Source: a virus. Taken from it: a DNA stretch of 64,000 nt. The notes below the pieces were generated by a model, which was given only the letters and a program-made list of their open reading frames with translations, was not told the DNA's origin and searched no databases. Of the stretch, positions 5,653 to 55,730 are shown piece after piece. How positions within the stretch are numbered: the stretch's first letter is position 1; each line of letters begins with the position of its first letter. The stretch lies in IMG/VR virus record IMGVR_UViG_3300020204_000008; one strand, written 5' to 3'. Both the position numbers and the translations under genes were made by a program.

Positions 5653-6291
5653 ATGAAACACATCTCTCACTATCACGATTGGAAGAGGCTCCATGAGTCA
5701 GAGGAAGAGCCCAACCCCGACCAGGGACTAGAGGATCTTCGGAGCCTGGTCGACCTTGGCTTCGCTGAGCCTCACGAGCTCAAGGCATACTATAAACAGA
5801 ACTATGCCGAACCTCGACGTCAAGAGTTCCTGACAAGCCTCATTGCGATGTTTACACAGGTCGGGGTCGATCCGATCGACCTTACCACCTCTCGTCAAGC
5901 CAAGAACGGTACCTATCACTTTCAGCTCACTCCTGCCCAGGTGGAAAGGCTCCTCTTTGGTTACCCCTTGCCGTCGGGTCTGCCTCATCGTCAGGCCGCT
6001 CGAATGCAGCGTCGCTTGCAGGAGCTGGCGAGCGTTCGTGGCCAGATGAGGAAAAAGAAAAGGGTGAGGACTAAAGACCTAAACGGTCGGGCCTGGACCT
6101 CTTCCAAGTACGAGTACTGGGTCTATCCGGGTGACGTGCGCAATGCCTCCTTCTTCGGTAAACCCAATTCCGCGCCATTCGTTCGATTTGACGGCGAACT
6201 CGCTGGAGAAGCGATGTTGGCCCGATTCATCTATCAGCTGGCACTGGACTCTCCCACGGATGAGAGATATTATTTACTCATGGATAAATAA
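5653..6291 (+). CDS. late protein with capsid-targeting-like N-terminus
   Basis: MKHISHYHDWKRLHES; late promoter. Confidence 0.75.
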   Translation: MKHISHYHDWKRLHESEEEPNPDQGLEDLRSLVDLGFAEPHELKAYYKQNYAEPRRQEFLTSLIAMFTQVGVDPIDLTTSRQAKNGTYHFQLTPAQVERLLFGYPLPSGLPHRQAARMQRRLQELASVRGQMRKKKRVRTKDLNGRAWTSSKYEYWVYPGDVRNASFFGKPNSAPFVRFDGELAGEAMLARFIYQLALDSPTDERYYLLMDK

Positions 6292-6309
6292 CTAAAAAAG
6301 AGTTTTATC

Positions 6310-6672
6310 ATGAAGAATCACGTAAAGAGCTTTGACCGGTTTGTCAACGAATCAGCATACGTCCTAGAATCTAGGAACGCCGAATCCATGAAGATCGACC
6401 TGATCCGCAAGATCGACGACGCGATGGAGGAAGAGGGAGTGACCGATGTCGACCTAGTCAATTCAATAGAATCAGTCATTCGTCAGGCCGAGGAGCACGG
6501 GTACGACGGCGACGTCTATGTTAGACACAGTCGTACTGGCAATACTGTTCTAGTATTTAAACCGACTCCTTCCCGTTTTCACCGTTCGGACTTTTACAAA
6601 AACGTCGTGAGTCCTTTAGTGGGCGGCATGCAAGGCGGTCACACGTTCGGTGGCGGTCGAGGTAAGTACTAG
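6310..6672 (+). CDS. late protein with capsid-targeting-like N-terminus
   Basis: MKNHVKSFDRFVNES; late promoter. Confidence 0.75.
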   Translation: MKNHVKSFDRFVNESAYVLESRNAESMKIDLIRKIDDAMEEEGVTDVDLVNSIESVIRQAEEHGYDGDVYVRHSRTGNTVLVFKPTPSRFHRSDFYKNVVSPLVGGMQGGHTFGGGRGKY

Positions 6673-6673
6673 G

Positions 6674-6907
6674 GTGATTCGATTACTGAGATACGGATCG
6701 GGTCTACTTGGGGCCAGGTCACACGGGGAACTCGACTCCCAGGAAGAGAGGCCCATGGTGAAGGGCATTGCCCAGATCCTACGTGGAGTAAAGGACAGGG
6801 GGAATCGCCAGGAATCGGCAGACCAACAGATCCGAAACTTTAAGAAGGAGGGAATCCGGTTTGACTATGCGGAGTTTTTAAAACTGTGTGGACTGGCCGA
6901 TAAATAA
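6674..6907 (+). CDS. hypothetical protein (GTG start)
   Basis: Starts 1 nt after upstream stop; ends DK*. Confidence 0.55.
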   Translation: MIRLLRYGSGLLGARSHGELDSQEERPMVKGIAQILRGVKDRGNRQESADQQIRNFKKEGIRFDYAEFLKLCGLADK

Positions 6908-6921
6908 TAAAAATTTGCACC

Positions 6922-7518
6922 ATGTTAAAATCATTTAGTCAGTTTATTAATGAGTCCACGATTTCAGCCTCTTCTAAAGATAATAAGAAACTGGTCGATA
7001 TCCTTAACCGATACGTCGGTAAGAGGGAAGAGGGCAACAACGACGGTGAGATGGTAAAGGGCTTCCTAAAGTCAGTAGGCCTAGGTACCGGTAATCCCTA
7101 GTGCATGGCGTTCGTCTATGCGATATTTGATGAGTTCTGTAAGGGTAAGGGAATCCCAAATCCTCTCTTTAAGACGGGATCAGTTCTCTATTTTTGGAGC
7201 AAGGTGCCAACCGAAAACCAGATCAAGGTCGCAGACGCGATCAAGGACCCAAGCCTAGTAAAACCCGGCCAAGTCTTTATTAAGTCTAGAAAGGGAGGAG
7301 GCCATACGGGTATAGTGCTCAAGGTGGAAGGGGATTCGTTTATCTCAATCGACGGTAACTCATCAGATCAGGTAAAGCTGAATCGTTATAAGATTGCCAA
7401 TATGTTGGGCTTTGCAGACTTTTTTAAGAATCCGACTGTCTCCAGTCAGATCGCATCACTGTCAAGCAGCATGATCTCCAAGCACGCACCTACTCTAGGT
7501 GGCGGAAAGGAAGTATAA
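6922..7518 (+). pseudogene. CHAP-family amidase/peptidase interrupted by in-frame TAG (7099-7101)
   Basis: MLKSFSQFINES...GNP*CMAFV (expected PWCxAFV), GHTGIV, SIDGNS. Confidence 0.7.
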
Positions 7519-7525
7519 ATCTTTG

Positions 7526-8134
7526 TTATTTTCCCAGTAACTTACCTAGAAACTTCTTTTTGGGTTTGGCTTGCTGTGCAGTGTCTTGAGCCAATGGAGC
7601 CAATTGTTGCGGAGCAGCGCTCTGTTGTATTTGGGTCACCGATTTAGTCGCCATCTTTTGAGGTGCCTTGCTCAGGTCGACAAACTTGGTCTGTGGAGTA
7701 ACATTCTTATTTTTCTTCTCTGCATCGTCATAGTAGTAAACCGCGCATAACGCATAGTTTTCTCCAAGCTCCTTGCCTCCAGTCTTTATGTGATGGATCA
7801 GTGTCTTAGTCACACCGTTACCTAAATGCTTGCGTTCAAAGCTACCTTTAATGACGTTTCCCTCCTTCTTTTGAGTAAAATGCTGTGCTGGTAACTGTGT
7901 CATGCCCTCACCAAAAAAGGTCAAGGCCAAGATCGGCTCGCTTGACGATCCGACATTGGGTAGACCCACGATCTCAAAATAAAACTTTGGATCAGACGAG
8001 TCGACATCAAACTCAGAAATGGGATGTTTAGGATCGATCTTTGTGTTGGGATAAGCCGATAATGTGATCACCAGTCCCGTTGTCTCTGCCTCATTGATGA
8101 ATTGCGTATAACTCTTTATGTATAAAGCTGCCAT
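7526..8134 (-). CDS. late protein with capsid-targeting-like N-terminus
   Basis: MAALYIKSYTQFINEAE; GATAAATA at 8155-8162. Confidence 0.7.
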   Translation of the reverse strand: MAALYIKSYTQFINEAETTGLVITLSAYPNTKIDPKHPISEFDVDSSDPKFYFEIVGLPNVGSSSEPILALTFFGEGMTQLPAQHFTQKKEGNVIKGSFERKHLGNGVTKTLIHHIKTGGKELGENYALCAVYYYDDAEKKNKNVTPQTKFVDLSKAPQKMATKSVTQIQQSAAPQQLAPLAQDTAQQAKPKKKFLGKLLGK

Positions 8135-8202
8135 CTGGAGTATTTCTTTATCGTTATTTATCAAATCTACAGAATAAATAAATAAATAAATAAAAAGGAT
8201 CC

Positions 8203-8414: not shown

Positions 8415-8777
8415 ATGCAAGACCTAATCAAAGAATACGAAGAATTCATCAATGAAGCCAAAACAACTGGTCTAGCGTTTGAGGAATTCGCAAAGGTTCG
8501 ACTCGCAGGAGCGACCAAGATCGCAGACACGGCAAAGGCTAAGGGTGGAGCTGCGATGTTAACGTATCAACACTTTGTTGTAAAACTTCCTTATTATAAG
8601 ATAGCAGCCTCTGGCAAGTGGGATGCGGGCTCCATGCAAAAGGAACTCACTAACCTAATTAAAGACCTTTCAGGCGGTGCCAAGAGACCCATCAAGATGG
8701 GCCAGACCGAGTTTCAAAGACTCGTCGGTAAGATCGAGGTGATTGGAGAATTACTGATCAGGCTCGGTGATAAATAA
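8415..8777 (+). CDS. late protein with capsid-targeting-like N-terminus
   Basis: MQDLIKEYEEFINEA. Confidence 0.75.
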   Translation: MQDLIKEYEEFINEAKTTGLAFEEFAKVRLAGATKIADTAKAKGGAAMLTYQHFVVKLPYYKIAASGKWDAGSMQKELTNLIKDLSGGAKRPIKMGQTEFQRLVGKIEVIGELLIRLGDK

Positions 8778-8791
8778 AAATAAAGAACGCT

Positions 8792-9190
8792 ATGTCTAAA
8801 CACAAATGCATAGAAAAATTTACCAGTTGGGTTCGTCTAAACGAGAGCGATGACCAAGAGAGGGAACTGATCGAAAGAGCAGACGGTCTAACGGCTGATT
8901 TTGAAGCAGATGCATCAAGGAGTCGACTTGAGACCAGCACGCTAATGATATGGTTCCACGGAATGATGGACCTGTATGATAACTCTGACCTAAAGGGACT
9001 TATCTTTATGAAGATGAAACCGATTTGGGCAAAATACTTTAAGCAGATCTATCCTTTGCTTAGCACGGACAACAAGGAACTTACTCGACACGATATCATG
9101 GAGATCAAACGCTATAAACAGCTTTCTACTGAAGAGTCTCACCATGAAAGAAGCGCAAACGACCTATTAAAAGACCTAGGATTACTCTAA
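8792..9190 (+). CDS. late protein with capsid-targeting-like N-terminus
   Basis: IEKFTSWVRLNES; late promoter at 8769. Confidence 0.7.
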   Translation: MSKHKCIEKFTSWVRLNESDDQERELIERADGLTADFEADASRSRLETSTLMIWFHGMMDLYDNSDLKGLIFMKMKPIWAKYFKQIYPLLSTDNKELTRHDIMEIKRYKQLSTEESHHERSANDLLKDLGLL

Positions 9191-9278: not shown

Positions 9279-9839
9279 TTGCAGAAGTTCGTCCCTAATT
9301 TTAAAGAATGGCAAAGACTTTTTGAGAATGAGTCAACTGATGACCTGGACACTAGGCTCGAGGACATGCGACGGCTTGCTGACCTTGGCATGATTGATAA
9401 ACGGGAACTTAGAAATTTTCTTAAAAGGGAGGGAGCCCCTGCACTAATTAAGTATGATCCTGCTCTCACCGAGATAACCCGATTACCCGAATATAGAGAA
9501 CTCCAAGAGAGGGGACTAGATATCGTCTCTTCCAGGACCCAGCTAATGAACGGTTCAATCATTTTCGGTCGACCTGGTTATCGACCGTATGACGGATACG
9601 CAATCGGGCTCTTTCCAGACATACAGAAGATAAGAAGAATGAAACCCAAAGGAATTCCGCTAGGTGTTAGAGCAAGAAAGTATGGTTCGATGGATTTTAC
9701 GATTAAAGACCTATCGGTCGATCCCGAAAATTTCTACCGTGTAGCGATGAGATGGGTGCTGGACCATATCGATCTCGATGATCCTTTTTTTCCAGTAAAA
9801 AACAAAACACGTAAGGGTTATTTTGACCAAGAATCCTGA
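9279..9839 (+). CDS. late protein with capsid-targeting-like N-terminus
   Basis: MQKFVPNFKEWQRLFENES; N-terminal module shared with 5653..6291. Confidence 0.7.
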   Translation: MQKFVPNFKEWQRLFENESTDDLDTRLEDMRRLADLGMIDKRELRNFLKREGAPALIKYDPALTEITRLPEYRELQERGLDIVSSRTQLMNGSIIFGRPGYRPYDGYAIGLFPDIQKIRRMKPKGIPLGVRARKYGSMDFTIKDLSVDPENFYRVAMRWVLDHIDLDDPFFPVKNKTRKGYFDQES

Positions 9840-10714
9840 TCCGATAAGACGTTACGAATTTCTCGATTGCTCTTCATTTTTACCTGCATTATACGAAGTG
9901 CCTTTACATAAACGAGCCTTGCCCATTCAGTAGTCTTTTCATGCCTGCGAGCGATGATTGAAAAGTGTTCTGGGTCTCCCCCATTTAATCCCATTTTTCT
10001 ACACACAACTTCTCGTTGGATAGGTGTCAGCTTAGATAGAGCAATCCTGACCGTCTCACTGATATCGGACTCATCAGTCAAGCTAGTGGTAGTGGCATCA
10101 GAGCTCAACCAATCGATTGGAGAGAGAATGTCTTCCGAAATAGAAGAGTCAATCGGTACACCCTTTGTCTCAACTTGGAGTATTCTTTGGATTTTATCTG
10201 CCTTTATCTCTTTCGTAGAGAACTGCGATATCCTTTCTTCAAGCTCCTCAGCTGTTCCTAGCCTTTCCTCTTCCTGAAGTATCTGTTCGTTGGCTTTACG
10301 AATCTTACTCAGATCCGTAAGAATATTTTGAGGAACCCTTACCGTTCGAGTGTCAGTATTTAAGTACACAAGTATCTCCTTTCGAATGTGCCATACTGCG
10401 AATGAGATAAACCTAAACCCTCGAGTCGGGTCAAACTGTCGAGCCGCATCACAGAGTCCAACGTTTCCCTGACAGATGAGGTCTTCTAGTGAGACCTCTG
10501 GATTGGTGTACTGTTTTGCGACTGATACCACAAATCTTAGGTTTGCTGAAATTAGCTTTTCGATGGCCGCCTGATCTCCCTGTTGAACTCTTTTTCCGAT
10601 CTCAAACTCTTCGTCTGGGCTCAACATAGGAAGGCTAGATACTTCAGTAAAATACCTTGAAATGTTTTCAGTTCGATTAGTTCTTCGATCTGCTTGAATC
10701 TTTAATTGTCTCAC
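9818..10714 (-). CDS. RNA polymerase sigma-70 family factor (RpoD/RpoS-like)
   Basis: ANLRFVVSVAKQY, DLICQGNVGL, FDPTRGFRFISFAVWHIR, RTVRVP. Confidence 0.92.
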   Translation of the reverse strand: MRQLKIQADRRTNRTENISRYFTEVSSLPMLSPDEEFEIGKRVQQGDQAAIEKLISANLRFVVSVAKQYTNPEVSLEDLICQGNVGLCDAARQFDPTRGFRFISFAVWHIRKEILVYLNTDTRTVRVPQNILTDLSKIRKANEQILQEEERLGTAEELEERISQFSTKEIKADKIQRILQVETKGVPIDSSISEDILSPIDWLSSDATTTSLTDESDISETVRIALSKLTPIQREVVCRKMGLNGGDPEHFSIIARRHEKTTEWARLVYVKALRIMQVKMKSNREIRNVLSDQDSWSK

Positions 10715-11175: not shown

Positions 11176-13389
11176 ATGAGCCATATCATTCAGAAATTTG
11201 GAGATTGGAAAAGAATAAACGAGGACGACAAGACTCCAGGAAGAGAAAGACAAAAGGGGAAACAAGGAAACAAGATCGTCTATATCCCAGTCGACCGAAA
11301 GACACTAAAATTAAAGATAGTTAATGAGACTGACATCATCGATGCTGAGGGATACCTACGAGTAACATCAGAAGGCGTACATGCGTTCGATGAATTGTTG
11401 AGACTTATTAAGGGTCAGTTTGAGATCATAGATTATTACGGTAAAAATGGTGGAGGTCTAAACGACTTAGTCAATAACATTGTCATATACGACGTAGATG
11501 TCGATCGCGGATCGAGAAAACAGGTGATCACGTTTAGAATCGAGAGCAAGACTGACCTGACTGCGGGCGATACGAGTAAAAAGATCAATTCAAGCGTTAG
11601 ATACGTCAGATCAGACCAGTTGAGAAAAGCCATAGACGGTGCACTAATTAATGTTGATAAGAAGAATCCAATCACATCAGATCAAAACTTTAAGTCTAAG
11701 TTTAAGTTACCTTTTTCAGCGGCAAACATCATCGGATCGACTGAATTGAATCTGATTCAATTTTTAGTAGATGCGTATAACACTATTAAAAAGGATACTA
11801 AAGCACAATCATCTAAGATCATGCCTAGATTAAAAGCAGAGCTTCAAGCTAAGAAACTCGGAGTGGCTTCAAAGCTATTCATTAAAGCTATGAATGCTGC
11901 GTTAATCATTAAGGATTCAGTAGGATTAAAAGATGCTACGTTTGGTGAAGACATCGAAGAAGACATAACTCAAACCCTATACGATTTTATCATGAATGCT
12001 AGAAAGGCTCTAGGCGAAGCGAATAGTTTATATTTAGGACTGGACGGCGACCAGATATTCGAAGCCGAGTCTGATCAAATAAGAGGATTTGATACTGATG
12101 CTTTCATATCAGTCGCGAATACTATCGTTCCAGAAACAGGTGATATCAAGGTTCCAGACAATGGATTTACGGTCGGCATGAAAGCAAATGCTGAGCTTGC
12201 AAAATTCCAGAAGCTTCTCTATACTAAGTTTAAGACAGTTTTAAAAGGGGTCTCTGCGTATGTAAATTTTGCCGCAAAAACTGGTGACGGTAAAGCCGGA
12301 AATCCAGTAGGAGACTATGGTAAAACAACTGCTGCTTTAATCCAATTGATAAAAGAAGGCTTAGATAAACCAGTATGGCAAGAAGCAGATGGCAGTCGAG
12401 GTGATGGAAATACGATAACTGTCAACTTCGTTAAAAGAATCCAAGATGAGATTTCACAAGGAAAAATCAAAGAATCTAGTGAACCTATGATTTATCTTGG
12501 ACTTGACGGCAAGTCAGTGATTGTTAGTGAAGACTTTGGTGTACCTGCAACTGCTGCCAGGACTAGCAGCCAACCTCAACAAAAACCTCAACAAAAAAGT
12601 CAACAAAAAAGTCAAACCGGCAGTGCGAACGTTTCTAGCTCAAACTCACTTGAATTGCCAAATGATCCAAGCCCAACATGGAGATATAAAGTAATAAACC
12701 ATGTTTGGAACGGAATCGATACTGCAGTCAAAACTGATACTTGGGGAACTATAATAAATCCTAAATATGTTAAGTTATTAATTCAACAGCTTACACCTAG
12801 GGTAAATGATGGATATTACATTAACGTTTCAAAAAATTCAGCTGGAAAATGGTCCCGTCAAGATAATAAGATTTATTCTTATCAAAATGGAAAATGGAGA
12901 GTCCAAGCAAATAATGAATGGTATGAGGTTACTGCAGGTGCAGCTCTAAATAATTTAATTGCAGCGTATGGCAGTAATCCAACTAATGCGGCATCGACTG
13001 GTACTTCATTAAAAGCTGAAAATAAGAGAATTATGGATTTAGTGTATGCCTACGGTGCAGGTAAATCATATGTTGATACTAAAGGGGCAGTCGGTTCTAG
13101 AATAATACAGTTTCATTTTAAACCGAGTAAGTATAGTGCAGCATGGAACGATTGGTGGAACATCACTTTTTATGAAAACGGTGACGGTCAATCGAGAAAG
13201 AGCACGTTTAGTATTTATGATAATTATAACAATAAGGTGATATTCCGTGGATATTTAGAAGATTTTTCAAACGGTAAGTTTAAAATAAGAACAACGTCTG
13301 GTTCTGTTCTCGGAACATTTAATGATACTTTAGAAAATCTTTTAAAAAGGTTGTGTTATGCTGGGGATGATATCTTTTGGTACAGGTAA
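11176..13389 (+). CDS. large multi-domain putative virion internal protein
   Basis: MSHIIQKFGDWKRINED; two internal YLGLDG..E repeats; Q/S-rich linker. Confidence 0.75.
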   Translation: MSHIIQKFGDWKRINEDDKTPGRERQKGKQGNKIVYIPVDRKTLKLKIVNETDIIDAEGYLRVTSEGVHAFDELLRLIKGQFEIIDYYGKNGGGLNDLVNNIVIYDVDVDRGSRKQVITFRIESKTDLTAGDTSKKINSSVRYVRSDQLRKAIDGALINVDKKNPITSDQNFKSKFKLPFSAANIIGSTELNLIQFLVDAYNTIKKDTKAQSSKIMPRLKAELQAKKLGVASKLFIKAMNAALIIKDSVGLKDATFGEDIEEDITQTLYDFIMNARKALGEANSLYLGLDGDQIFEAESDQIRGFDTDAFISVANTIVPETGDIKVPDNGFTVGMKANAELAKFQKLLYTKFKTVLKGVSAYVNFAAKTGDGKAGNPVGDYGKTTAALIQLIKEGLDKPVWQEADGSRGDGNTITVNFVKRIQDEISQGKIKESSEPMIYLGLDGKSVIVSEDFGVPATAARTSSQPQQKPQQKSQQKSQTGSANVSSSNSLELPNDPSPTWRYKVINHVWNGIDTAVKTDTWGTIINPKYVKLLIQQLTPRVNDGYYINVSKNSAGKWSRQDNKIYSYQNGKWRVQANNEWYEVTAGAALNNLIAAYGSNPTNAASTGTSLKAENKRIMDLVYAYGAGKSYVDTKGAVGSRIIQFHFKPSKYSAAWNDWWNITFYENGDGQSRKSTFSIYDNYNNKVIFRGYLEDFSNGKFKIRTTSGSVLGTFNDTLENLLKRLCYAGDDIFWYR
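12570..12615 (+). repeat. 12-bp tandem repeat encoding QPQQKPQQKSQQKSQ
   Basis: caacctcaacaaaaacctcaacaaaaaagtcaacaaaaaagtcaa. Confidence 0.7.
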
Positions 13390-13391: not shown

Positions 13392-13751
13392 ATGAAATAT
13401 CGAGCTAAAACATATTGTCAATTTATCAATGAGGCATACATCGACTCATCTGGTGAGCTTCAGGATTTCGAAGCACCTGGTGAAGATGACTATGAATTTC
13501 AGCTATTGGATCACGCACAGCGTATCCAGGAATACCTAGAAGAGTCGGGTGCGGATCGAGTACGACTAATGGTTGATGGAGGAGTGATCAGATTAAAGTT
13601 CGAGTACCAGGGTTCACTCTACATAATGGAACTAGACATTGATAATGATGTCGCGACTGTGAGACTAGATCAGATCATAATCTATGAGGACTCTGTCGAT
13701 TCGATATTTGACTTATTGGCCTCTACTGGTCTAGAATTTTTAATGTTTTAA
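13392..13751 (+). CDS. acidic protein with capsid-targeting-like N-terminus
   Basis: MKYRAKTYCQFINEA (start reassigned). Confidence 0.7.
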   Translation: MKYRAKTYCQFINEAYIDSSGELQDFEAPGEDDYEFQLLDHAQRIQEYLEESGADRVRLMVDGGVIRLKFEYQGSLYIMELDIDNDVATVRLDQIIIYEDSVDSIFDLLASTGLEFLMF

Positions 13752-14644
13752 TGAATCTACTTGATTTTAAATATTGGATCACACTAAACGAGTCTCAAAA
13801 GGGCTACTATACTTTTGAGATACCTAAACGTGAGCTTACTGAGATCGATGATGCATACGATCAGGAGCTTAGAGAGATATTAAAGGGTCTGCCTGATGCG
13901 ATGTACGATATTTCTGAGGGCAGAGGGCAATTCACACTCACTCTGCATGGAAGCCAAGACGAAATACTTTCTTCAGTTTATGGAGAATCCCAGGAGGTTG
14001 TCATCAAATTGGCACACCCAGCAAGTTCAAATAGCTATTCTGGTCCTTTTAAAAAGATCTCATATCCCGAACTCGTCAAACAGTTAAGGGGTTCAGTCTA
14101 TCCGAATAAATTCACTGAGGGCGATGACTCAGCTCAAATCAGATATTCTTTACAATTAAACACTGACCTGGATATGTTATTAAACATTACTGCTCGAAAG
14201 ACTGCCGTTACCTTTTCAGCACACAATCACCAGTTTATCAGACCCGAAGCTTCCGCATTCTTTGAGTTAGTATACAATTCAGATGAGTCGAAAATAGCTG
14301 CTCTTACCAAGCAACTCAATGAATACTTAAGATATTTTGCAGTAAAATCAGCGTTACCTAAATACCTGGTCTCCGAAAGCACTCCGAACCTGGAAGAGAT
14401 CGAATCTAGCGTCAAAAAGAGAATGCAAGGGATCACGTCGATCGATTTCAACACGGCATCACCAGAAGAAAAGGAGAAGGGACTTCAAGAGGTGCTCTCT
14501 TTTCAGAGGGAACTCTTATCTACGTCATCAAAGAGTGATATTGAGGCTCCGATCATGACTGATGCCATGATAGAAAACTTTAGAATCCTACTAAAGGAGC
14601 TTGGCGGGGTCAAGGAGATTAAATCTGCCCTATCTACTAAATAG
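13751..14644 (+). CDS. protein with capsid-targeting-like N-terminus
   Basis: MNLLDFKYWITLNES; TAATG coupling. Confidence 0.7.
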   Translation: MNLLDFKYWITLNESQKGYYTFEIPKRELTEIDDAYDQELREILKGLPDAMYDISEGRGQFTLTLHGSQDEILSSVYGESQEVVIKLAHPASSNSYSGPFKKISYPELVKQLRGSVYPNKFTEGDDSAQIRYSLQLNTDLDMLLNITARKTAVTFSAHNHQFIRPEASAFFELVYNSDESKIAALTKQLNEYLRYFAVKSALPKYLVSESTPNLEEIESSVKKRMQGITSIDFNTASPEEKEKGLQEVLSFQRELLSTSSKSDIEAPIMTDAMIENFRILLKELGGVKEIKSALSTK

Positions 14645-14905: not shown

Positions 14906-15634
14906 TTATCCAAGTAATCCGCGATAGATTCTAAACTTCGCTAGACGATCTGCCAATCCATTGGTTCCGCCGTTCACTCTTCGAGAGACCTTAGTCACGA
15001 CAGAATCAGTAGCTCCCTGATCACAGATAGCCCATAGGTTATTACGATTAAAGAAGAAAGCGGCCGATGCCAATGGGTACTTGTTTGCGACTAGATCCGG
15101 TTGAGCGACACAGTCCTCTCCGATAAATTGTGAAAAGACTCCATAATTGGATCTTCCAGTCAACTGGATGTATCCTCTACCCTTGAATCGAACGCCGTCT
15201 CCGGTTTGTGTGTTACCCAAGTCTCGACGACCCTCATATGCCTGACCAGAAGCGATCTCCGTCTTGTATCTCCAGTCACCAGACTCGTGAGCGCACTGTG
15301 CAAGAAAGTGAGCGAGTCTCAAGTTATTGGTGATGCCGAACTTGGTGGCAATCTGGGCCAGTTCAGTCAAGACACCAGCCGGAACTCGGCCAGTTAATCG
15401 ATCTAGAGACAGCCCTGCGACTTGTGTCACAGCATCAGTGATCTGACTGTTTACACCAAACATCTTGGCCCAAGTTGCAGGCCCAACTACACCGTCTGCC
15501 GTTAATCCGTTTTGAGTCTGCCATTCCTTGACCTTGGTTTCAGTTACTGGACCAAACGATCCGTCTTGGGTAAGTCCAAGCTTGTCTTGTAGTTTCTTTA
15601 CGTCCTCTCCAGAGGACCCTTTCTTAAGTAGCAT
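14906..15634 (-). CDS. endolysin: peptidoglycan-binding domain + GH19 lysozyme/chitinase domain
   Basis: DGSFGPVT/ADGVVGPATW; LAHFLAQCAHES, FKGRGYIQLTGRSNY, VNGGTNGLADR. Confidence 0.92.
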   Translation of the reverse strand: MLLKKGSSGEDVKKLQDKLGLTQDGSFGPVTETKVKEWQTQNGLTADGVVGPATWAKMFGVNSQITDAVTQVAGLSLDRLTGRVPAGVLTELAQIATKFGITNNLRLAHFLAQCAHESGDWRYKTEIASGQAYEGRRDLGNTQTGDGVRFKGRGYIQLTGRSNYGVFSQFIGEDCVAQPDLVANKYPLASAAFFFNRNNLWAICDQGATDSVVTKVSRRVNGGTNGLADRLAKFRIYRGLLG

Positions 15635-16641: not shown

Positions 16642-16740
16642 TAGTCAGGACAGGATTCGAACCCGTATGATGGTTGCTTTAAGCTTTGTTTCACCGTACT
16701 TCCCATCTAAGCTAGCGTCTACCCATTCCGCCACCTGACT
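16642..16740 (-). tRNA. tRNA-like RNA, AGTCAGG acceptor, no canonical anticodon loop
   Basis: AGTCAGG/CCTGACT-A; GGCGGAATGGGTAGACGC D arm; ACGGG-TTCGAAT-CCTGT; expanded middle. Confidence 0.6.
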
Positions 16741-18608: not shown

Positions 18609-18929
18609 TTATTGTTTATTGGTTATTGAATCGATTACTTTTTGTAGATCATTAAAATCTTCCATGTATTTTGAACTGCCTCGATTTAGGAGTAAGTCCT
18701 TTGCCTCAATAAGAAGAGAAAGGACTTGTGAGACGGTATCGGGTCTTTTAGAATCAAAGAATCTATCAAGATATTCAACTGACTCTGGTGAACCTATTAG
18801 TGCATCACATGAGCTAAACTGTTCTAAGTATTGATCTCCCAATTGAGCGTGAGTTTTCACTAATTCCTCTAATTCTGGTATTCTTTTCTTATTGAACGAC
18901 ATAGTACTATATACTACGCGTTTTTCCAT
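18609..18929 (-). CDS. hypothetical protein
   Basis: ORF track. Confidence 0.6.
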   Translation of the reverse strand: MEKRVVYSTMSFNKKRIPELEELVKTHAQLGDQYLEQFSSCDALIGSPESVEYLDRFFDSKRPDTVSQVLSLLIEAKDLLLNRGSSKYMEDFNDLQKVIDSITNKQ

Positions 18930-20211
18930 GGTTCCCCTTAAATACTGGAAATCTTAAAGAATGATTGCCGTGTTGATCGGTCGTATGTTCAAAATACTGC
19001 ACGGTAATTGTGGCTCCCATTATCTCACCAATGTTTCGATAATAGTGTCGACGCTGGTCTAGGGTAAACCCGCTACCTACCTGTACTTGAGATCCTTCGT
19101 GATCGATGGTTACCGCGCTTAACATCTCCTCCTCTACTTCCCTACCGTCTATGATGATTCGCTGAGGTCCCATGATGAGTCCTGTGACCACGTATTCAGC
19201 ATCAAAAAATTCTTTGATCTTTAGCATGTCTTTGGACCTACCTGACTTGTATGGAGCATCCTTTCTTGCAATGAGTCCCTCCCAGTTAGAATCTTTAGAT
19301 TGACCCTTTAACTCTTCTAGAGAATCTTCATCTGTGATTCTTATTTGAGGTAGCATCTCAAGTATTTCAGAAGACTTGAGATCGCCTAGCCATTGTTCTC
19401 TACCTTCAATTCTAGTAGAAAAAAGAGGAGAGTCATATTCTCCTGAAAACTCTTCAGGTTGAAGAATGTCAAATATCAGGTATTTTGGATTCTCTATCGT
19501 ATGGTCCTTGCGTTGTATCTGTTTCAGGACTCCCTGGAAGTCATCTGAGCCATCTTCATTCATGAGACATAGTTCACCGTCTAGAATAACGTCAGTGATC
19601 CCTAAACGTCTTATTTCCTCTGCTACTTTTCCAAGAGTGTGAAATTCCTTACCGTTCCTAGAAAAGAACTTGATCCATTCATCATGTACGACACAGATGC
19701 ATCGAACACCGTCGAGTTTCCTAGATACATACCAGGTACCATCAAACAGGTCTACTCCCTTTACTTTAGCTGCGTCATGAGCTAGGGCAACCTCAAACGT
19801 TGGAATAAAGTTTGGATTTACTCTATTGATTAGAGTAACGGTTGCCCTGGTCTCCAAGTTTCTATCGATTATCTGATAAATCAGGTCAGACCAGGCTTCA
19901 TAATCTTTAATGAATCTATTCATGGCTCCTATTGCAGCATGACCAGTCATGTGACGAGCATTGAAATCGTCTAACATTTGAAATAGATCACAATACACCT
20001 CGTTAGGAGCAATCAAATCTGATCTCTTTTTAAGATTGGCTGAAGTCACACCAAAATTAAAATATGGATTATACGTATAGAGAAGTACCCTTTTAATGAA
20101 TGGATGATATTGATATTTAGTGAGAACGTCCACTTTATGGTTAGTGGAATTTGAAGAGTTCATCTCATTAACAAACTCGCGAAGTTCACGAAAGTCTTGG
20201 GTGTTTTGCAT
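18907..20211 (-). CDS. lig: ATP-dependent DNA ligase
   Basis: KLDGVR motif I, LDGEL, FDIL, WEGLIAR, LKIKEF, VGSGF, SLRFPVF. Confidence 0.95.
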   Translation of the reverse strand: MQNTQDFRELREFVNEMNSSNSTNHKVDVLTKYQYHPFIKRVLLYTYNPYFNFGVTSANLKKRSDLIAPNEVYCDLFQMLDDFNARHMTGHAAIGAMNRFIKDYEAWSDLIYQIIDRNLETRATVTLINRVNPNFIPTFEVALAHDAAKVKGVDLFDGTWYVSRKLDGVRCICVVHDEWIKFFSRNGKEFHTLGKVAEEIRRLGITDVILDGELCLMNEDGSDDFQGVLKQIQRKDHTIENPKYLIFDILQPEEFSGEYDSPLFSTRIEGREQWLGDLKSSEILEMLPQIRITDEDSLEELKGQSKDSNWEGLIARKDAPYKSGRSKDMLKIKEFFDAEYVVTGLIMGPQRIIIDGREVEEEMLSAVTIDHEGSQVQVGSGFTLDQRRHYYRNIGEIMGATITVQYFEHTTDQHGNHSLRFPVFKGNHGKTRSI

Positions 20212-20684: not shown

Positions 20685-21011
20685 CTACTTTGTTTTATTT
20701 TTTTCAAGCTTTGTGACTCGAGTGGTAAGATCATCAAGTAAAGCTTTTACGCTATCGATTTTATCACTAGCTTTATCTAAGTCTTCATCCGTGATCTCAT
20801 CATCAGGCAAGTCTCCATTAGAGTCTTCATCAGCTGTCTTTCCATAGGCTCCCGCAGTATAATCCATGGGCTCGGCACTAGTTCCCTCTAGACTAGAATT
20901 ATGCGGATTTTCTGCATCCATTCCAGCTTCGCCCCAATTCTTATCGCTCCAATCTAAGTCAGAGTTCTCGTAAGTTCTCCTCGAACTAATAAAATCTAAG
21001 AAGCTCTTCAT
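20685..21011 (-). CDS. acidic late protein with targeting-like N-terminus and C-terminal coiled coil
   Basis: MKSFLDFISSRRTYE; VKALLDDLTTRVTKLE. Confidence 0.7.
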   Translation of the reverse strand: MKSFLDFISSRRTYENSDLDWSDKNWGEAGMDAENPHNSSLEGTSAEPMDYTAGAYGKTADEDSNGDLPDDEITDEDLDKASDKIDSVKALLDDLTTRVTKLEKNKTK

Positions 21012-21090: not shown

Positions 21091-21438
21091 TTAGATATTT
21101 GCCTCTTTCGCAGCAGGTGCAGCTTCACCTTCACCCTCTTCTCCTTCAGCTCCTTCCTCACCTTCTTCTCCCTCTTCACCTTCTTCTTCTGGTTCAAGTT
21201 TTTTAACTCTTTCAGTAAGGTCATCGATCATAGCTTTAAGGTCTTCTAGAGTCAATTCCTCTTCTCCTTCAGCTCCTTCTTCGCCTTCTCCTTCTGCTGG
21301 CTCTTCTTCCTCTTCAGGATTAGCTCCATAGTATCCCATTTTCTTTTCTTCTTCAGGATTAGTTCCATATCCTTCCATTCCGTCGCTTTCGTTCATTCTG
21401 CGAGTTTTCATAAACCCTGCAAAGTTTTTTACTTTCAT
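21091..21438 (-). CDS. highly acidic Glu/Gly-repeat late protein
   Basis: MKVKNFAGFMKTRRMNES; EGEEGAEGEE repeats; LKAMIDDLTERVKKLE. Confidence 0.75.
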   Translation of the reverse strand: MKVKNFAGFMKTRRMNESDGMEGYGTNPEEEKKMGYYGANPEEEEEPAEGEGEEGAEGEEELTLEDLKAMIDDLTERVKKLEPEEEGEEGEEGEEGAEGEEGEGEAAPAAKEANI

Positions 21439-22021: not shown

Positions 22022-23353
22022 TTATGCTAATCCTGCTTCCTTATCAATAAGGCTGTTTACTTTGGCTGAGCCCTTTGCCCATGCTCCAGAAAGCCTAGCT
22101 GCTCTGGTTTCCTTGGCTATCTCTATCAATTGGCGGTCAGATTTACCAGTTTTTACACCTTTTTCAAGTTCTTTTGCAAAATCTCTAAAAAATGCTGGAC
22201 CATTCCAACAAGCATAGGACATGTGTAAGAGCAAGCCGTTGTTATTTTCGATCTTTTTCTTTGTTTCTGGGTCTTTTACGAAGGCTGCCATGTTTGCTTT
22301 ATACTGTTTTAACATAATCTTCGCAGCCAAGTCTTTAAGTTTATCTTCTAACTCTCCGCCACGATATCCCCATTTCCATTTTTTACAAAACCCAGCATTG
22401 CCTAATTCCTTTTTTTGATCGTCAATTAGCTTAAAGAATTCTTCACCTTCCGGTTTTATCTTTTCAATAGCGCCGGCCTTTCGGTCAAGACCAAACATAG
22501 TTTCGCCAGAATTTTTAAACATTGCTGAATATGGATGATCCTTACATTCCCAATGATTCCAATAACCTCCTTCAAAATTGTCAATTACTTTTTTGGTGAT
22601 TGTCATCCAACGCTCATCTATACTACCAGTAGCCGGTGTTGAAGAACTAATCGGATCACCTAAACTATCAACTTTAAACTTTTTCTTGAACCATTCTAGT
22701 TTTTCAGGGTCGTCCTTTATTAATTTATCAATAAAATCGCCAGTTAAAGTAACTTTTGGCGCATTTTTAGCGAACCATGCAACCACTTCTGAGTTACTTG
22801 CCATCTTTTCACCAAATGTTCCCTTTTTTCCAGTTGGAGTACCCTTTCCGCCGACTACTCTTTTTACTCCGACGTGTATGTGATCAAAGTGATTTTTTAC
22901 TCGCCATCCAACTTGATATCGATAGCCATTGATTGTCACGTTAAACCATGAACCTCCCTTGTATTCCGGATGTCCGAATTTTTCCATGATGTATGCAAGT
23001 AGAGCGTCTCCCTCAGCACCAGCTGCTGCAATGTCAACTGCGTATGCATCCTGATTGCCCTCATAATGGTCTGAGGTATTACCAGAATCAGTCTTTTGTC
23101 TAGACCTCTTTTGAGAAGTAACGAGTGATCCCTTTTTTCCATTGGATGCAGCCCAATCGTCTGCTACTCTGGCAAACCATAGTGCTCTCGGCATCGATCC
23201 ACCCCAATTTCCTCCAGATCCTCCTGCGACTACTTTGGCGGCATCAACTGATCCTGATGCATAACCAAATGTCTTGTCTGGATAGTTCGCACTGGGATCG
23301 AATGCCGCAGTCTCATTTAAAGTGTTCCAAGTATTAAAGTTTAAAAGTCTCAC
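22022..23353 (-). CDS. putative two-domain peptidoglycan hydrolase (Zn peptidase M15-like + lysozyme-like)
   Basis: SDHYEG..AVDI..HFDHIH; FEGGY..GETMFGL; N-terminus MRLLNFNTWNTLNE. Confidence 0.6.
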   Translation of the reverse strand: MRLLNFNTWNTLNETAAFDPSANYPDKTFGYASGSVDAAKVVAGGSGGNWGGSMPRALWFARVADDWAASNGKKGSLVTSQKRSRQKTDSGNTSDHYEGNQDAYAVDIAAAGAEGDALLAYIMEKFGHPEYKGGSWFNVTINGYRYQVGWRVKNHFDHIHVGVKRVVGGKGTPTGKKGTFGEKMASNSEVVAWFAKNAPKVTLTGDFIDKLIKDDPEKLEWFKKKFKVDSLGDPISSSTPATGSIDERWMTITKKVIDNFEGGYWNHWECKDHPYSAMFKNSGETMFGLDRKAGAIEKIKPEGEEFFKLIDDQKKELGNAGFCKKWKWGYRGGELEDKLKDLAAKIMLKQYKANMAAFVKDPETKKKIENNNGLLLHMSYACWNGPAFFRDFAKELEKGVKTGKSDRQLIEIAKETRAARLSGAWAKGSAKVNSLIDKEAGLA

Positions 23354-23373: not shown

Positions 23374-23868
23374 TTATTTATTTAAGGTAAGGTGTCGATC
23401 TAGAATGATTAACTGATTTCGAGTACAAATCGGATATGCTTCCTCTGGACTAACGAACTTTCCCCAATCAATTTCCTCTAATTGTAACTGATCTTTAGGT
23501 ACTCTATCTGATGCTAATCCTATTTCACTAAGGTCAGATACATTACAAATAAAGTAGGTTAGCGATCCGCTAGGTTCGCCCCGCTCATTATAAAAATCTA
23601 CTTTATGTGATTCTGGATCGAGCTGGCTCGGATCCAAGATGATTCCAGTCTCTTCCTTTAACTCGCGAAGAGCTCCAGTGACCGGGTCTTCTCCCAATTC
23701 AAGGTGGCCCTTAGGTATTCCACAAGTCGCTTTTCTCCATGAAGAATTAGTCGGATGGATAAAAAGTATCCTATTTTCCCAGATAATTGCTACTCCTGCC
23801 GTTCGATTGTCTTCCAGTTGCCTGCTCATGCCCAATCTTTCATTTAAAAAATCGTTAAATCTTAGCAT
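23374..23868 (-). CDS. NUDIX hydrolase
   Basis: Nudix box GHLELGEDPVTGALRELKEETGI. Confidence 0.92.
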   Translation of the reverse strand: MLRFNDFLNERLGMSRQLEDNRTAGVAIIWENRILFIHPTNSSWRKATCGIPKGHLELGEDPVTGALRELKEETGIILDPSQLDPESHKVDFYNERGEPSGSLTYFICNVSDLSEIGLASDRVPKDQLQLEEIDWGKFVSPEEAYPICTRNQLIILDRHLTLNK

Positions 23869-30130: not shown

Positions 30131-30385
30131 TTATCGTTTATTTTTAGATTGAGTCTTTTTCTTGATCGGACTCGCCTTTTCGATTTGGTCCTCACTGACT
30201 CTTTCATTCTTGCCTTGAATTAAGACCAAGTAGTGCTTTTTATCGATTGCTGTTACTTTACCGATTCGATCCTTTACTTTTACTTGTTCTCCTATTCTAA
30301 ATTTTGATCTTTTTTCTATGAATGGATCAAGCGACTCCTTTAGAGAGTCGCTTAGATATTGTGAATAAGAAAGTATTCTTTTCAA
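30131..30385 (-). CDS. SH3/KOW-like small protein with targeting-like N-terminus
   Basis: MKRILSYSQYLSDSLKES; FRIGEQVKVKDRIGKV. Confidence 0.6.
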   Translation of the reverse strand: MKRILSYSQYLSDSLKESLDPFIEKRSKFRIGEQVKVKDRIGKVTAIDKKHYLVLIQGKNERVSEDQIEKASPIKKKTQSKNKR

Positions 30386-52896: not shown

Positions 52897-53175
52897 CTAT
52901 TTCTTTTTATTTCTTTTTGCCTTTTTAGCTCTTTGCCAGAGGGACTTATCTGCCTTCTGAGTGGTCTTTCCTCCGGTGATAAATGAATTTACTCGTGCCA
53001 TCGCCCATTGCTGCTGGGTGACCCCAGGGCGATGTCCAGTCCTCCAAGCCGCCATTCCTTTGTTATATACGGTTCGAAGTATGCCTAACGGAATTCCGCT
53101 AGCTTTGGCTTTATTCTTAAGAGCGGTCTCCGACTCATTAATTCTGTTATTCAACCACTGATTAAAATTTAACAT
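52897..53175 (-). CDS. basic DUF5824-like protein with targeting-like N-terminus
   Basis: MLNFNQWLNNRINES; SGIPLGILRTVYNKGMAAWRTGHRPG..WAMARVNSF. Confidence 0.7.
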   Translation of the reverse strand: MLNFNQWLNNRINESETALKNKAKASGIPLGILRTVYNKGMAAWRTGHRPGVTQQQWAMARVNSFITGGKTTQKADKSLWQRAKKAKRNKKK

Positions 53176-53176
53176 C

Positions 53177-53866
53177 TTATTTCTCTTTTTTTCCAAGCTG
53201 TCTCTTGACCTCTTCTCTTACTTTCTCCATCTTTTTAGCATAAGCCGGATCGTCCTTACGATTAAAGACGATCTGCTGGTTAAGGCTTCCTGTGATCTTG
53301 CGCATGTCTCCTCCTCTGGTCCTGATCAACCATGCAGCAAGTGCCTTGATTCCCAAGCTCTTAAACTTTCCCTTAGCGTCTGGTGCATCCGAATCGTGCC
53401 AGTCTGGAGCACCCTTGGGTTTTTTACCCTCAGATACTTCGTCCTCGTTCTTAGCTTGCCAATCTGCAGATACTTTATCATCTAGGATAGGTCCGCCTGA
53501 TGCCCAAGTATAACAGGTTCTAGCAGAATGACACTTAAAGTGGTGCATCCAACAGTAACCCAAACGACCGTCGGGATCCGATACTTCGCCTGGCATGCAG
53601 GCTTCCATTCTTGGAGAGATATCGAAGGCCACACAATTACTGCAATTAGATTCCTTAGCTACTTCAGGTTCAGTATTCCATTTCTTAGCATATCTGATCC
53701 AGTATTCATCATCATTTAGGTTTAGCGGGCCATATTGAATATACTCCGCCTCAATTGCCTTATCTCTGTTTTGAGTGTTTAACTCTAGGTTTTGAGTCGC
53801 CATTGGACAAGAACCGTTCTCCTTTTCAAGAATTAAGTATTGTCGATAGTTTAATAGGTTTTTCAT
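53177..53866 (-). CDS. Cys/His-rich protein with targeting-like N-terminus
   Basis: MKNLLNYRQYLILE; CSNC, CWMHHFKCHSARTC. Confidence 0.7.
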   Translation of the reverse strand: MKNLLNYRQYLILEKENGSCPMATQNLELNTQNRDKAIEAEYIQYGPLNLNDDEYWIRYAKKWNTEPEVAKESNCSNCVAFDISPRMEACMPGEVSDPDGRLGYCWMHHFKCHSARTCYTWASGGPILDDKVSADWQAKNEDEVSEGKKPKGAPDWHDSDAPDAKGKFKSLGIKALAAWLIRTRGGDMRKITGSLNQQIVFNRKDDPAYAKKMEKVREEVKRQLGKKEK

Positions 53867-54279
53867 TTTTTACCGAATTTTTTTTGATAGGCTAGCGTGT
53901 ATTTACTAGGTTTAGTTTTGTATCGTTTGCCCGATTTTGAATAGTCTGCTTTCCAGCCACCGTCCGGATAACTAGTATATGCACTAGCATCATTGTCACT
54001 CTTTTTAGCGTGTTTCTTGATCTCACTCTTCATCTCCCTAGAATCTCGAGTCAAGTATACGGGATTTACTTTTTCCTTTTTTCTCTCGTTCACGAATTGA
54101 GAATAGGTCAAGATCTTGGACTCATTCTTGGAGATCTCGATAGCTTGTAATTGGTCGACTGCCTTTTCTCGAGTAGGGTGAGTTCCAAGTAACTTACGCT
54201 TACCGTTCACCTTCTTTTTAGAATAGACTTTCCACACATTACCTGACTTTTCTATGGTCTCATTTATCGAATCCATCAC
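53863..54279 (-). CDS. basic protein with internal targeting-like motif
   Basis: LLGTHPTREKAVDQLQAIE; KILTYSQFVNE; KTKPSKYT. Confidence 0.7.
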   Translation of the reverse strand: MMDSINETIEKSGNVWKVYSKKKVNGKRKLLGTHPTREKAVDQLQAIEISKNESKILTYSQFVNERKKEKVNPVYLTRDSREMKSEIKKHAKKSDNDASAYTSYPDGGWKADYSKSGKRYKTKPSKYTLAYQKKFGKK

Positions 54280-54541
54280 CCTTTATTATTTTTACCTTTA
54301 ATGTTCCAGTTCCCCGAATCACCCTGTGCCACTGACCTCTCTCGATAAAAACTGTCGAGTTTAGGCTTTGCGGTAACTTATTCTCCAATTGAATCTTCCA
54401 ATCAGTAGACTCAATTGCTAGTATCGCTCTGTCCTCGTCGTCTCGATGCCAAGTAAACTCTGTGATAGTTGTATCTTGTGAAAATTCACGTATATAAGTA
54501 TCACTAGATATTTGAGTCTCTTCGAATAGTAATTGCTTCAT
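54260..54541 (-). CDS. cupin-like small protein
   Basis: WHRDDEDR..FIERGQWHRVIRG. Confidence 0.65.
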   Translation of the reverse strand: MKQLLFEETQISSDTYIREFSQDTTITEFTWHRDDEDRAILAIESTDWKIQLENKLPQSLNSTVFIERGQWHRVIRGTGTLKVKIIKGDGFDK

Positions 54542-54558
54542 GCTATTTTATTTTTAAA

Positions 54559-55158
54559 TCACAGACCAGCAACAGCTGGAACGTTAGTTTCCATGTGACC
54601 CGTCTTTTTCTTTGCCTCACCTGCACTCTTCGCAATTGCATCTCTAGCGATCTTATTATCTGCACCAAAATCAGTATAATAATATTTTACTTTCGATGAA
54701 TTATTTTTAGTAAACTCTTGATAAAAAGAAGATACTTCAGAATTTCCCATCCAAATATCAACTAATAAGACTTTAGAAAAGTCAGAGGCTCTATTCTTTA
54801 ATAGGGACCTGCCTGGACGATATCCTCCAGAAAATAGATACAGGACCTTTGATGATGGTTTAATTCCATATTTTTCAAGTTGAGTGAGCACGTTTTTATA
54901 AGTTGACTCTCCATCTACTTGATGACTAGATGCAACGAATATGTGATACTTGTTTTTTAATTTATCCACATAGTCCCACATGTAGTCTCCGCTCGGTCTT
55001 CCACCAACGCGTATTCCGCCATAGACTATGAGTAGAGGAGCCGTCTTGTTTTTACAAAACAGGATTTTTCCACCGGAGATAACGGTTTTTTCAGTAGGCA
55101 TGGACTCAACTTGAGTCGCATCCTCAAATAATTGTTGATAAGTTAATAGATGCTTCAT
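54559..55158 (-). CDS. alpha/beta-hydrolase-like protein with targeting-like N-terminus
   Basis: MKHLLTYQQLFED (start reassigned, TAATG); YLFSGG, LLVD, GHM. Confidence 0.55.
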   Translation of the reverse strand: MKHLLTYQQLFEDATQVESMPTEKTVISGGKILFCKNKTAPLLIVYGGIRVGGRPSGDYMWDYVDKLKNKYHIFVASSHQVDGESTYKNVLTQLEKYGIKPSSKVLYLFSGGYRPGRSLLKNRASDFSKVLLVDIWMGNSEVSSFYQEFTKNNSSKVKYYYTDFGADNKIARDAIAKSAGEAKKKTGHMETNVPAVAGL

Positions 55159-55730
55159 TACCAAAATCCAGGATAAGTTTTTCCGCCCCAAAGGTGAGCG
55201 TAGCGGTTGATGCGGCAAGCCCAATAGCCAGCCTTAGTCCGGTCCTTCTTCTCAGCACAGTTGTGTCGAGCAGCAAAGGACTTTCTGGCTTTTGGATTGG
55301 ACACTTTTGCTGTGAGTCCTCCATGCACATCACCAAACGCGATCTTAATTATTTTTTTTGTTTTAGGGTTTCTCACGTAAACGTGATACTTTTTAGTACC
55401 TCCTCTCATGGGATAGCCCAATCTAGGTGACTTTTCCTCATTAAGATCCAATACCTCAAGAGGAAGGTCTAATGGAACCGCGTGACCGTTAAATATTCCA
55501 GTAAGACCAAGATCAGTGGACTCAAAGAGTTGGCGATCGTGATCACCCAATATAAGTAGGCCAGCATAAAACTTTTGTCTAGCTTCAGTGAGTAGTTCAA
55601 GGTGAGCGTCTGAACCCGGTCGAAAAACTGATTCAGCAATGCTGATATCTCGATCAATATGATACTTTAAGCTCTCTGAGATAGCTGACTCACCAATAAA
55701 TTGAGTAAAACTTTTTATTCTAGCTTCCAT
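55158..55730 (-). CDS. late protein with targeting-like N-terminus and basic RKSFAARHNC domain
   Basis: MEARIKSFTQFIGES; KIAFGD..ARKSFAARHNC..AGYWAC. Confidence 0.75.
   Translation of the reverse strand: MEARIKSFTQFIGESAISESLKYHIDRDISIAESVFRPGSDAHLELLTEARQKFYAGLLILGDHDRQLFESTDLGLTGIFNGHAVPLDLPLEVLDLNEEKSPRLGYPMRGGTKKYHVYVRNPKTKKIIKIAFGDVHGGLTAKVSNPKARKSFAARHNCAEKKDRTKAGYWACRINRYAHLWGGKTYPGFW

Follow-up and report, generated by a model that had tools for sequence, protein, structure and literature searches.

Why should about one gene in five along a single stretch of viral DNA begin with the same short series of amino acids, when the proteins that follow these beginnings are almost all unrelated to one another? 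The stretch in question (IMG/VR record IMGVR_UViG_3300020204_000008; 64,000 nucleotides, here called the window in its whole length) comes from a large uncultured myovirus that is a distant relative of phage T4. Within the first 10-18 residues of 16-19 of its ~88 genes lies a common motif, [FY]-x-x-[FWY]...[ILV]-x-E, which we call the tag. An earlier reading of this DNA (the original prediction) had taken 19 such N-termini to be a T4-like signal for entry into the capsid, and all 19 are present in the window exactly as it gave them, the one at 8134 being on the minus strand. The evidence assembled here indicates that this N-terminus is probably the lineage's own version of the T4-type capsid-targeting sequence (CTS).

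A shared N-terminus on unrelated proteins

A strict form of the pattern ([FY]..[FWY], then [ILV/N].E a few residues on) was tested on the first ~22 residues of 88 curated genes and matched 17 of them. The comparison with shuffled controls, proposed at the outset as a check, left little doubt: shuffling of the first 26 residues yielded a mean of 1.07 matches and a maximum of 5 in 2000 trials, and the pattern is 15-fold rarer at internal positions (Fisher p = 7e-12). A chance origin of the shared tag is ruled out by these statistics. Since the strict pattern had been composed after the data were seen, three independent checks were made. Position matrices trained solely on leaders from other genomes (84 from the family of the tagged NUDIX enzyme and 27 from that of g23353, the two-domain protein of Table 1) reached at least 6 bits at the N-termini of 11 of 86 other window genes, against 3 of 33,310 internal positions. 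The window has many relatives in IMG/VR; in one of these, the 176-kb contig G001, whose DNA is 77-82% identical to the window and collinear with it from 17.5 to 64 kb, the strict pattern matched 23 of 211 open reading frames (ORFs), the shuffled mean being 2.6. It stood at background in the control genomes of T4 (ipII and ipIII excepted), PAU, PTm1 and MaF61. When N-termini were scanned blindly for enriched triplets of residues, gaps allowed, FxNE, KxYxxF and NES came out for the window, and LNxxxW and FxxWxxE for G001.

The 19 tags resemble each other in more than the pattern that defines them. Their Glu is invariant and is always found at residues 10-18; the [FY]-x-x-[FWY] pair is present in 18 and does not vary across the NUDIX, g23353 and g11176 families (the last being that of the 737-aa protein of Table 1); the third residue before the predicted cut is I, L, V or M in 17, and Asn precedes the Glu in 12. 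The residue following the Glu formed no part of the search pattern. Ser or Ala stands there in 12 of the 19 (background 0.13, p = 6e-7), and likewise in 9 of the 16 tags of that part of G001 which does not overlap the window. The tags at 21011, 30385 and 55158 are looser, and the orthologues of these genes in G001 keep them. Three additional, weaker instances that had been proposed, at 20677 (a DUF192 protein), 24891 and 54541, do not fit the motif and have been discarded.

The tag occurs in two spacing forms, as the original prediction had recognized in speaking of two dialects, and these differ in the size of the proteins that bear them. The first (F-x-x-[FY]-[ILV]-x-E; form A in Table 1) is found on small proteins with a median of ~120 aa (n=14), the second (F-x-x-W-x-x-[LI]-x-E; form B) on large ones with a median of ~370 aa (n=10). 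For the window together with the non-overlapping part of G001, a small sample that includes paralogues, the Mann-Whitney test of this size difference gave p = 0.0017.

Once the first 20 residues were removed, all-against-all BLASTP found the mature parts to be unrelated, with the exception of two weak pairs: 5653 and 9279 (30% identity over 73 aa), and 21011 and 21438 (a short match). The leaders themselves are conserved in a selective manner. In orthologues from the relatives L037 and L038, whose bodies are 35-76% identical, the anchor residues are kept and the spacer residues have changed, as in the pairs IEKFTSWVRLNE / VTTFRNWVRLNE and NFKEWQRLFE / GFGKWSRVFE. The NUDIX family retains F-x-x-[FY]-[ILV]-x-E in ~115 of the 120 homologues listed, at identities down to ~50%, and the linker between tag and NUDIX core is hypervariable in both length and sequence; most of the 65 homologues of the 737-aa protein, with identities as low as 25%, still have the tag. 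The codons of the conserved residues vary among the tags (AAT/AAC, GAG/GAA, ATT/ATC/ATA, CTA/TTA/CTC/CTT, together with exchanges of F, Y and W), and hence the tag is neither a copied piece of DNA nor an RNA signal: it is selected as a peptide. In AlphaFold2 models of g23353 and g11176, residues 1-14 and 1-13, respectively, are unstructured and of low confidence, and the folded domains begin later.

The tagged genes belong to the late genes of the phage. The T4 late promoter TATAAATA has its local counterpart in ATAAATAA, of which the window contains 35 copies, against 7.4 expected; the core of the local sequence, ATAAATA, is found no more than 60 nt upstream of 10 of the 17 pattern-matching genes but of only 15 of the 71 others (p = 0.005). 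The remaining tagged genes are situated downstream of tagged or late genes in the same transcription units, which agrees with the promoter arrangement first proposed for them. The tag is not common to all late genes, since 15 late-promoter genes are without it. The tag had also been said to be absent from the early-module genes, the sigma factors, the ligase, the terminase and the tail proteins, and no N-terminal tag was found on the early-module genes, the sigma-70-like factor (9818-10714), the terminase or the baseplate proteins. The ATP-dependent DNA ligase departs from this statement in bearing the look-alike FRELREFVNE; we treat it as such because it scores -7.5 bits and has no late promoter, and it is presumably a part of the ligase's own N-terminal domain. 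The PG_binding+GH19 endolysin (14906-15634) has no N-terminal tag; its internal FSQFIGE sits inside the GH19 core and was taken as chance.

The T4 counterpart and the tags of other lineages

The nearest known parallel to the tag is the start of the T-even internal proteins, for whose CTS the study named is reportedly that of Mullaney and Black in 1996. In the T4 genome (NC_000866), ipII and ipIII begin with MKTYQEFIAE, precisely as the original prediction had stated, and ipI begins with MKTFKEFTS...ITE. Among these T4 proteins, IPI inhibits a restriction enzyme, and without IPIII the phage cannot infect E. coli strain ECOR17. The CTS and the proteins IPI, IPII and IPIII that carry it have been reviewed (PMC9026906, PMC3012670), and the T-even phages together possess "more than 30 variants" of internal proteins (PMC2839356). 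In IPIII, residues 4 and 7 are the main determinants of targeting and residues 8 and 10 those of processing (PMC9026906); these are the positions that correspond to the conserved aromatic, aromatic, [ILV] and Glu of the tag. Only ipII and ipIII match the strict pattern in T4, the ipI version being looser, and the cut site of the T4 capsid protein gp23, FGSFLTE followed by Ala, also fits that of the tag. At the T4 sites too, the residue after the Glu is Ala or Ser. The matrix trained on the NUDIX family ranks ipIII third and ipII fourth among 267 T4 N-termini, the first place being taken by the hypothetical protein gp61.1. PHROGs and Pfam scans of the tagged proteins gave no match to the T4 internal-protein families; the tag alone is common to both.

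The machinery that would recognize and remove such a tag can be seen in G001 (loci L043:17509-19485 and L044:514-2172). There, a Peptidase_S77 (gp21) domain opens a 658-aa protein whose remainder resembles a scaffold: it is a coiled coil in which [FY]xxY[LIV]xE recurs about ten times, in units of 14 residues. A Gp23-family capsid gene lies directly downstream, the N-terminus of its product (NTWQPILEGYG) paralleling that of T4 (NKWKPLLEGEG); a DnaJ-like gene is located just upstream of the protease gene, and a T4-type portal is also encoded.

Sphingomonas phage PAU (NC_019521), the nearest cultured phage judged by its terminase (~33% identity), has a tag of its own. A blind triplet scan of its genome gave KTxxxL and LYE, and 19 of its 293 genes begin with M-K-[TS]-[LI]-x-x-L-[YF]-E, a pattern with 0 internal matches in 69,011 residues. 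Ala or Ser follows the Glu in 15 of the 19, and KLNE[SA] often comes next. Many of these genes cluster round those of the portal, protease and scaffold, mainly at 100-114 kb, and among the tagged products gp142 and gp154 are labeled "internal capsid protein" in GenBank and gp152 "scaffolding". The PAU capsid protein has the sequence ALME, followed by N, at residues 61-64, and its length is given as 585 and 520 residues (PMC5646251), which fits cutting at L-x-E. Literature searches found no paper that describes the PAU tag set.

A third code appears in two incomplete IMG/VR contigs (L095, 3300002835_000369, and L097, 3300042564_004498), where many unrelated neighboring genes start with M-K-x-I-I-x-L-T-E-S-[DE]-L, ending in [IL]-T-E; no S77, Gp23 or terminase match was found in these partial sequences. 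Short homologues (250-280 aa) of the C-terminal domain of g23353, of which these two contigs contain examples, bear a leader other than the window tag, MGKKFVVRLTEQEL or MYKKIIISESEK, which argues that the tag follows the phage lineage and not the cargo.

The tagged proteins and the window

Most of the tagged proteins belong to no known family: Pfam, PHROGs and PDB sequence searches of tagged and candidate proteins named only NUDIX, DUF5824, DUF192 and CHAP. Of the enzymes that the original prediction had placed among the cargo, the NUDIX hydrolase was confirmed. The others fared less evenly. The cell-wall hydrolase (22022-23353) stands at the level of fold, its lysozyme-like C-terminal domain matching with Z ~9, and found no support at the level of sequence; the VIA-align scores were Z 9.4 for Brucella SagA, 9.1 for the DLP12 endolysin and 8.9 for P22 lysozyme. 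Long homologues of g23353 keep the tag, and many of them have a GH19 C-terminal domain at this place. The likeness of its N-terminal domain to a zinc peptidase (H..D, HxH) was seen by eye and had no support from any tool, and the domain was given no assignment. For the alpha/beta hydrolase there is a structural lead, and that only for the protein at 54559-55158, whose Atlas structure has TM 0.64-0.86 to alpha/beta-hydrolase folds, including a viral cluster fused to PG_binding_1. The tagged CHAP peptidase exists as an intact 201-aa protein in the relative L038 (L038:5804-6409; Pfam CHAP, 27.3 bits); by comparison with it, the window gene (6922-7518) is broken by a TAG that replaces a Trp codon just before the catalytic Cys. 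This TAG may have arisen by nonsense mutation or by faulty sequence assembly, or it may be a site of read-through.

The largest tagged protein matches SleC (Z 8.7), the N-domain of SleB (Z 7.9; 1.8 Å over 73 residues) and phiKZ gp144 (Z 7.0), and these fold matches point to a putative peptidoglycan-binding domain; hhalign gave no significant relation between the g11176 family and the peptidoglycan-binding domain of the endolysin. Foldseek found no match at E <= 0.001 for either AlphaFold2 model, and the consistent domain matches came from the VIA-align wide search alone. We relied on their moderate Z-scores because all the top matches belong to one kind of domain.

As to their general character, 11 of the 19 mature proteins are basic (pI >= 8.8) and 7 are acidic. 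The operon 11176-13392-13751 is conserved across distant relatives, and the gene content of the tagged clusters varies between relatives. In orthologues of the gene at 8415..8777 the tag reads KAYSLFINE, and the leader of 21091..21438 is identical in G001 at 17 of 17 residues. The first 54 residues of the ORF at 53863..54279 match phrog_3684, and a TTG codon at residue ~55 could start a nested, tagged product.

Table 1. Tagged genes of the window, with other features discussed in the text; positions are those of the window except in the last line
Feature	Coordinates	Strand	N-terminal motif	Residue after Glu	Remarks
Tagged gene, form B	5653..6291	+	Y-x-x-W-x-x-L-x-E		212 aa; Glu at residue 15; late promoter upstream
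Tagged gene, form A	6310..6672	+	VKSFDRFVNE	S	120 aa; late promoter; matrix 17.9 bits
Tag and N-terminal part of CHAP peptidase	6922..7101	+	MLKSFSQFINE	S	in-frame TAG at 7099-7101
Rest of CHAP peptidase, same frame	7105..7518	+			begins just past TAG and catalytic Cys codon
Tagged gene, form A	7526..8134	minus	IKSYTQFINE	A	202 aa; late promoter 8154-8161
Tagged gene, form A	8415..8777	+	IKEYEEFINE	A	120 aa; downstream of late gene at 8203
Tagged gene, form B	8792..9190	+	KFTSWVRLNE	S	132 aa; late promoter
Tagged gene, form B	9279..9839	+	NFKEWQRLFE	N	186 aa; late promoter; TTG start
Largest tagged protein, form B (g11176)	11176..13389	+	KFGDWKRINE	D	737 aa; putative peptidoglycan-binding-type fold ~320-435
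Tagged gene, form A	13392..13751	+	AKTYCQFINE	A	119 aa; shares operon with 11176
Tagged gene, form B	13751..14644	+	LLDFKYWITLNE	S	297 aa; 11176 operon; matrix 27.9 bits
Looser tag, long spacer, like T4 IPI	20685..21011	minus	MKSFLDFISSRRTYE	N	108 aa; late promoter
Tag with long spacer	21091..21438	minus	VKNFAGFMKTRRMNE	S	115 aa; late promoter
Tagged two-domain protein, form B (g23353)	22022..23353	minus	LLNFNTWNTLNE	T	443 aa; lysozyme-like C-terminal domain 243-443
Tagged NUDIX hydrolase, form A	23374..23868	minus	MLRFNDFLNE	R	164 aa
Looser tag	30131..30385	minus	ILSYSQYLSDSLKE	S	84 aa; conserved in G001
Tagged DUF5824 fragment	52897..53175	minus	MLNFNQWLNNRINE	S	92 aa
Tagged gene	53177..53866	minus	LLNYRQYLILE	K	229 aa; orthologue tags in L022 and G001
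ORF with internal tag at residue ~55	53863..54279	minus	KILTYSQFVNE	R	138 aa; absent from G001
Weaker tag	54559..55158	minus	LLTYQQLFE	D	199 aa; alpha/beta-hydrolase fold
Tagged gene, form A	55158..55730	minus	IKSFTQFIGE	S	190 aa; late promoter 55736-55743; matrix 22.8 bits
ATP-dependent DNA ligase (look-alike)	18907-20211	minus	...DFRELREFVNE		orthologue in L096 keeps this start
Third tRNA-like gene	16642-16740	minus			Rfam 35 bits; 36-nt insertion between D arm and T arm
Large terminase	42272-44251	minus			matches T4-type terminase families
T4 gene 61.1	NC_000866 18966-19130	minus	MKTFKEFIKE		54-aa hypothetical protein; beside primase gene

The place of the window among known phages is given by its large terminase, which shares ~30-33% identity with the terminases of PAU, Flavobacterium phage MaF61 and Tenacibaculum phages; next to the terminase gene lies that of a gp6-like baseplate wedge protein. 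A megablast search with 25 kb of the window found no close deposited phage at the DNA level. Four GC-rich stretches (1675-2052, 2803-3126, 4846-5151 and 6650-6907) form odd and probably non-coding "ORFs" amid the AT-rich early and late genes, and a block at 4-8 kb reaches 47% GC, against 36-41% across most of the window. The third tRNA-like gene received no ARAGORN call.

Alternative readings and known systems

We favor, as the probable explanation, a CTS of the T4 type that docks its carrier on the core and is removed by the S77 protease, the mature protein staying in the head. During prohead assembly, the two aromatic residues of a 10-18-residue propeptide would bind the freshly synthesized protein to the scaffolding core; cutting at the [ILV]-x-Glu end of the propeptide by the prohead protease of gp21 type (S77) would then leave the mature protein in the head with the DNA. 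Docking, cleavage after the Glu, presence in the virion and ejection into the host are here predicted from sequence. If targeting depends on the tag alone, we propose that any gene set behind a late promoter and a tag becomes cargo, and in this manner the lineage may have accumulated tens of cargos, compared with T4's three internal proteins. The recurrence of lysozyme-like, CHAP, PG-binding and esterase-like proteins suggests a role at the cell wall, during entry, for a part of this cargo; the cytoplasm would be the place of action of the NUDIX enzyme and of the small proteins, basic or acidic, as it is for the internal proteins of T4.

A number of points weigh against this conclusion. The phage is uncultured, so that virion presence and cleavage are deduced from its genes; the protease, scaffold and capsid genes were seen in the 77-82% identical relative G001, and those of the window phage itself are presumed by analogy. 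Several tags are loose (55158, 30385, 21011), and a T4-type head would be out of the ordinary in holding ~40 cargo species, some as large as 80 kDa. The "internal capsid protein" labels of PAU are those of the GenBank deposition, and the N-terminus of T4 gp61.1, MKTFKEFIKE, encoded beside the primase gene, indicates that look-alikes can occur outside the known head genes.

The tag might also be a head propeptide cut by the prohead protease on carriers that are not injected, being instead structural or core parts (scaffold accessories, vertex or inner-body proteins) or being degraded and expelled. Such propeptides are indeed also cleaved from T4 gp67, gp68, gp22 and gp24 (PMC5694885), the scaffolding protein of PAU itself bears the lineage tag, and the operon 11176-13392-13751 is conserved in distant relatives as a core module would be. 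Nonetheless we think this unlikely, for NUDIX, lysozyme-like, CHAP and esterase-like enzymes have no obvious role as building blocks, and the tagged clusters vary in gene content among relatives in the way of the T4 internal-protein loci. A motif unrelated to the head, be it a recognition helix for a chaperone, an envelope route for cell-wall enzymes, or a degradation or regulatory signal, seems to us decidedly improbable. It would accommodate the at least four tagged proteins with peptidoglycan-related folds, which must reach the periplasm, and the DnaJ-like protein encoded just upstream of the G001 protease gene; but the tag is too little hydrophobic for a signal or SAR sequence, it is found also on the NUDIX enzyme and many small soluble proteins, lysis is already covered by the untagged endolysin, and the match to the mapped CTS residues of T4, together with the small residue after the Glu, would have to be coincidence. 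There is very little to recommend the idea that the leaders resemble one another only because a promoter-plus-start cassette was copied as DNA, or because they contain a signal for translation initiation. T-even internal-protein loci are known to recombine at conserved flanks (PMC2839356), yet this explanation is largely refuted by the differing codons of the conserved residues, and the anchors persist in families down to 25-50% identity while the neighboring residues change.

The T4-type CTS may be only part of a more elaborate arrangement, which we put forward tentatively and hold to be rather doubtful. The tag would then serve as a packaging code peculiar to each lineage and evolving together with its scaffold: by copying the [FY]xxY[LIV]xE repeats, the cargo would pass for scaffold units and assemble with the core, small internal proteins and large cell-wall-active ejection proteins would be separated in place or copy number by the two spacing forms, and PAU and the lineage of L095 and L097 would use codes of their own. 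The T4 scaffold gp22 has no aromatic repeats, so that mimicry of scaffold by tag is not general. If such a code exists, the injected proteome of uncultured phages, including anti-defense and entry factors, could be read from metagenomes.

The phage proteins that are injected with the DNA are the first to meet the host defenses and are hard to recognize by sequence. If the tag marks head cargo, each genome would supply ~30-40 candidates for injected proteins, and metagenomes could be searched for more by a simple sequence rule; a T4-type head would then carry far more kinds of protein than that of the model phage, including cell-wall enzymes of the sort usually tied to tails or podovirus cores. 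The tag would, moreover, be a natural variant of the sequence already used for loading foreign proteins into engineered T4 heads. PAU, with its own 19-gene tag, is in culture, whereas the window phage is not.

How does this system compare with those already known? Like the T4 internal proteins, the tagged proteins have an N-terminal propeptide of 10-20 residues with hydrophobic or aromatic residues at 4 and 7 and an [IL]-x-Glu followed by a small residue; they are expressed late, their mature parts are unrelated, and their lineage has the T4-type protease, scaffold and capsid protein seen in G001. Unlike T4 with its three internal proteins, 64 kb of this lineage contain 16-19 tags and the 176-kb G001 has 23 more pattern matches; the tag comes in two spacings and favors Asn ahead of the Glu, recognizable enzymes and proteins of up to 737 aa are included, and the system is known from sequence. 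PAU resembles the window lineage as a distant T4-like jumbo phage with an S77 protease, a gp23-type capsid protein and a many-gene tag, and differs from it in the tag itself, MKT[LI]xxL[YF]E, with aliphatic instead of aromatic anchors and the Glu at position 9. In the giant phages phiKZ, 201phi2-1 and SPN3US, a protease related to gp21 processes many of the head proteins, cutting after Glu, and their propeptides are thought to target them into the prohead (PMC5694885). Those propeptides are unlike the window tag in being mostly >100 residues long; their motif is [ASG]-x-E, and they have no short aromatic tag in common. Among podoviruses, T7 gp16 and phiKMV gp36 are housed in the head, possess a domain that degrades the cell wall, and exit the capsid upon infection; these ejection proteins are not known to have a removable T4-type tag, and their phages have no contractile tail bearing a baseplate lysozyme. 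The concept of a T4-type head-loading tag is thus a known one; what is new is its scale in one genome, the two size-linked forms, the cell-wall theme of the cargo, and the parallel tags of PAU and another lineage.

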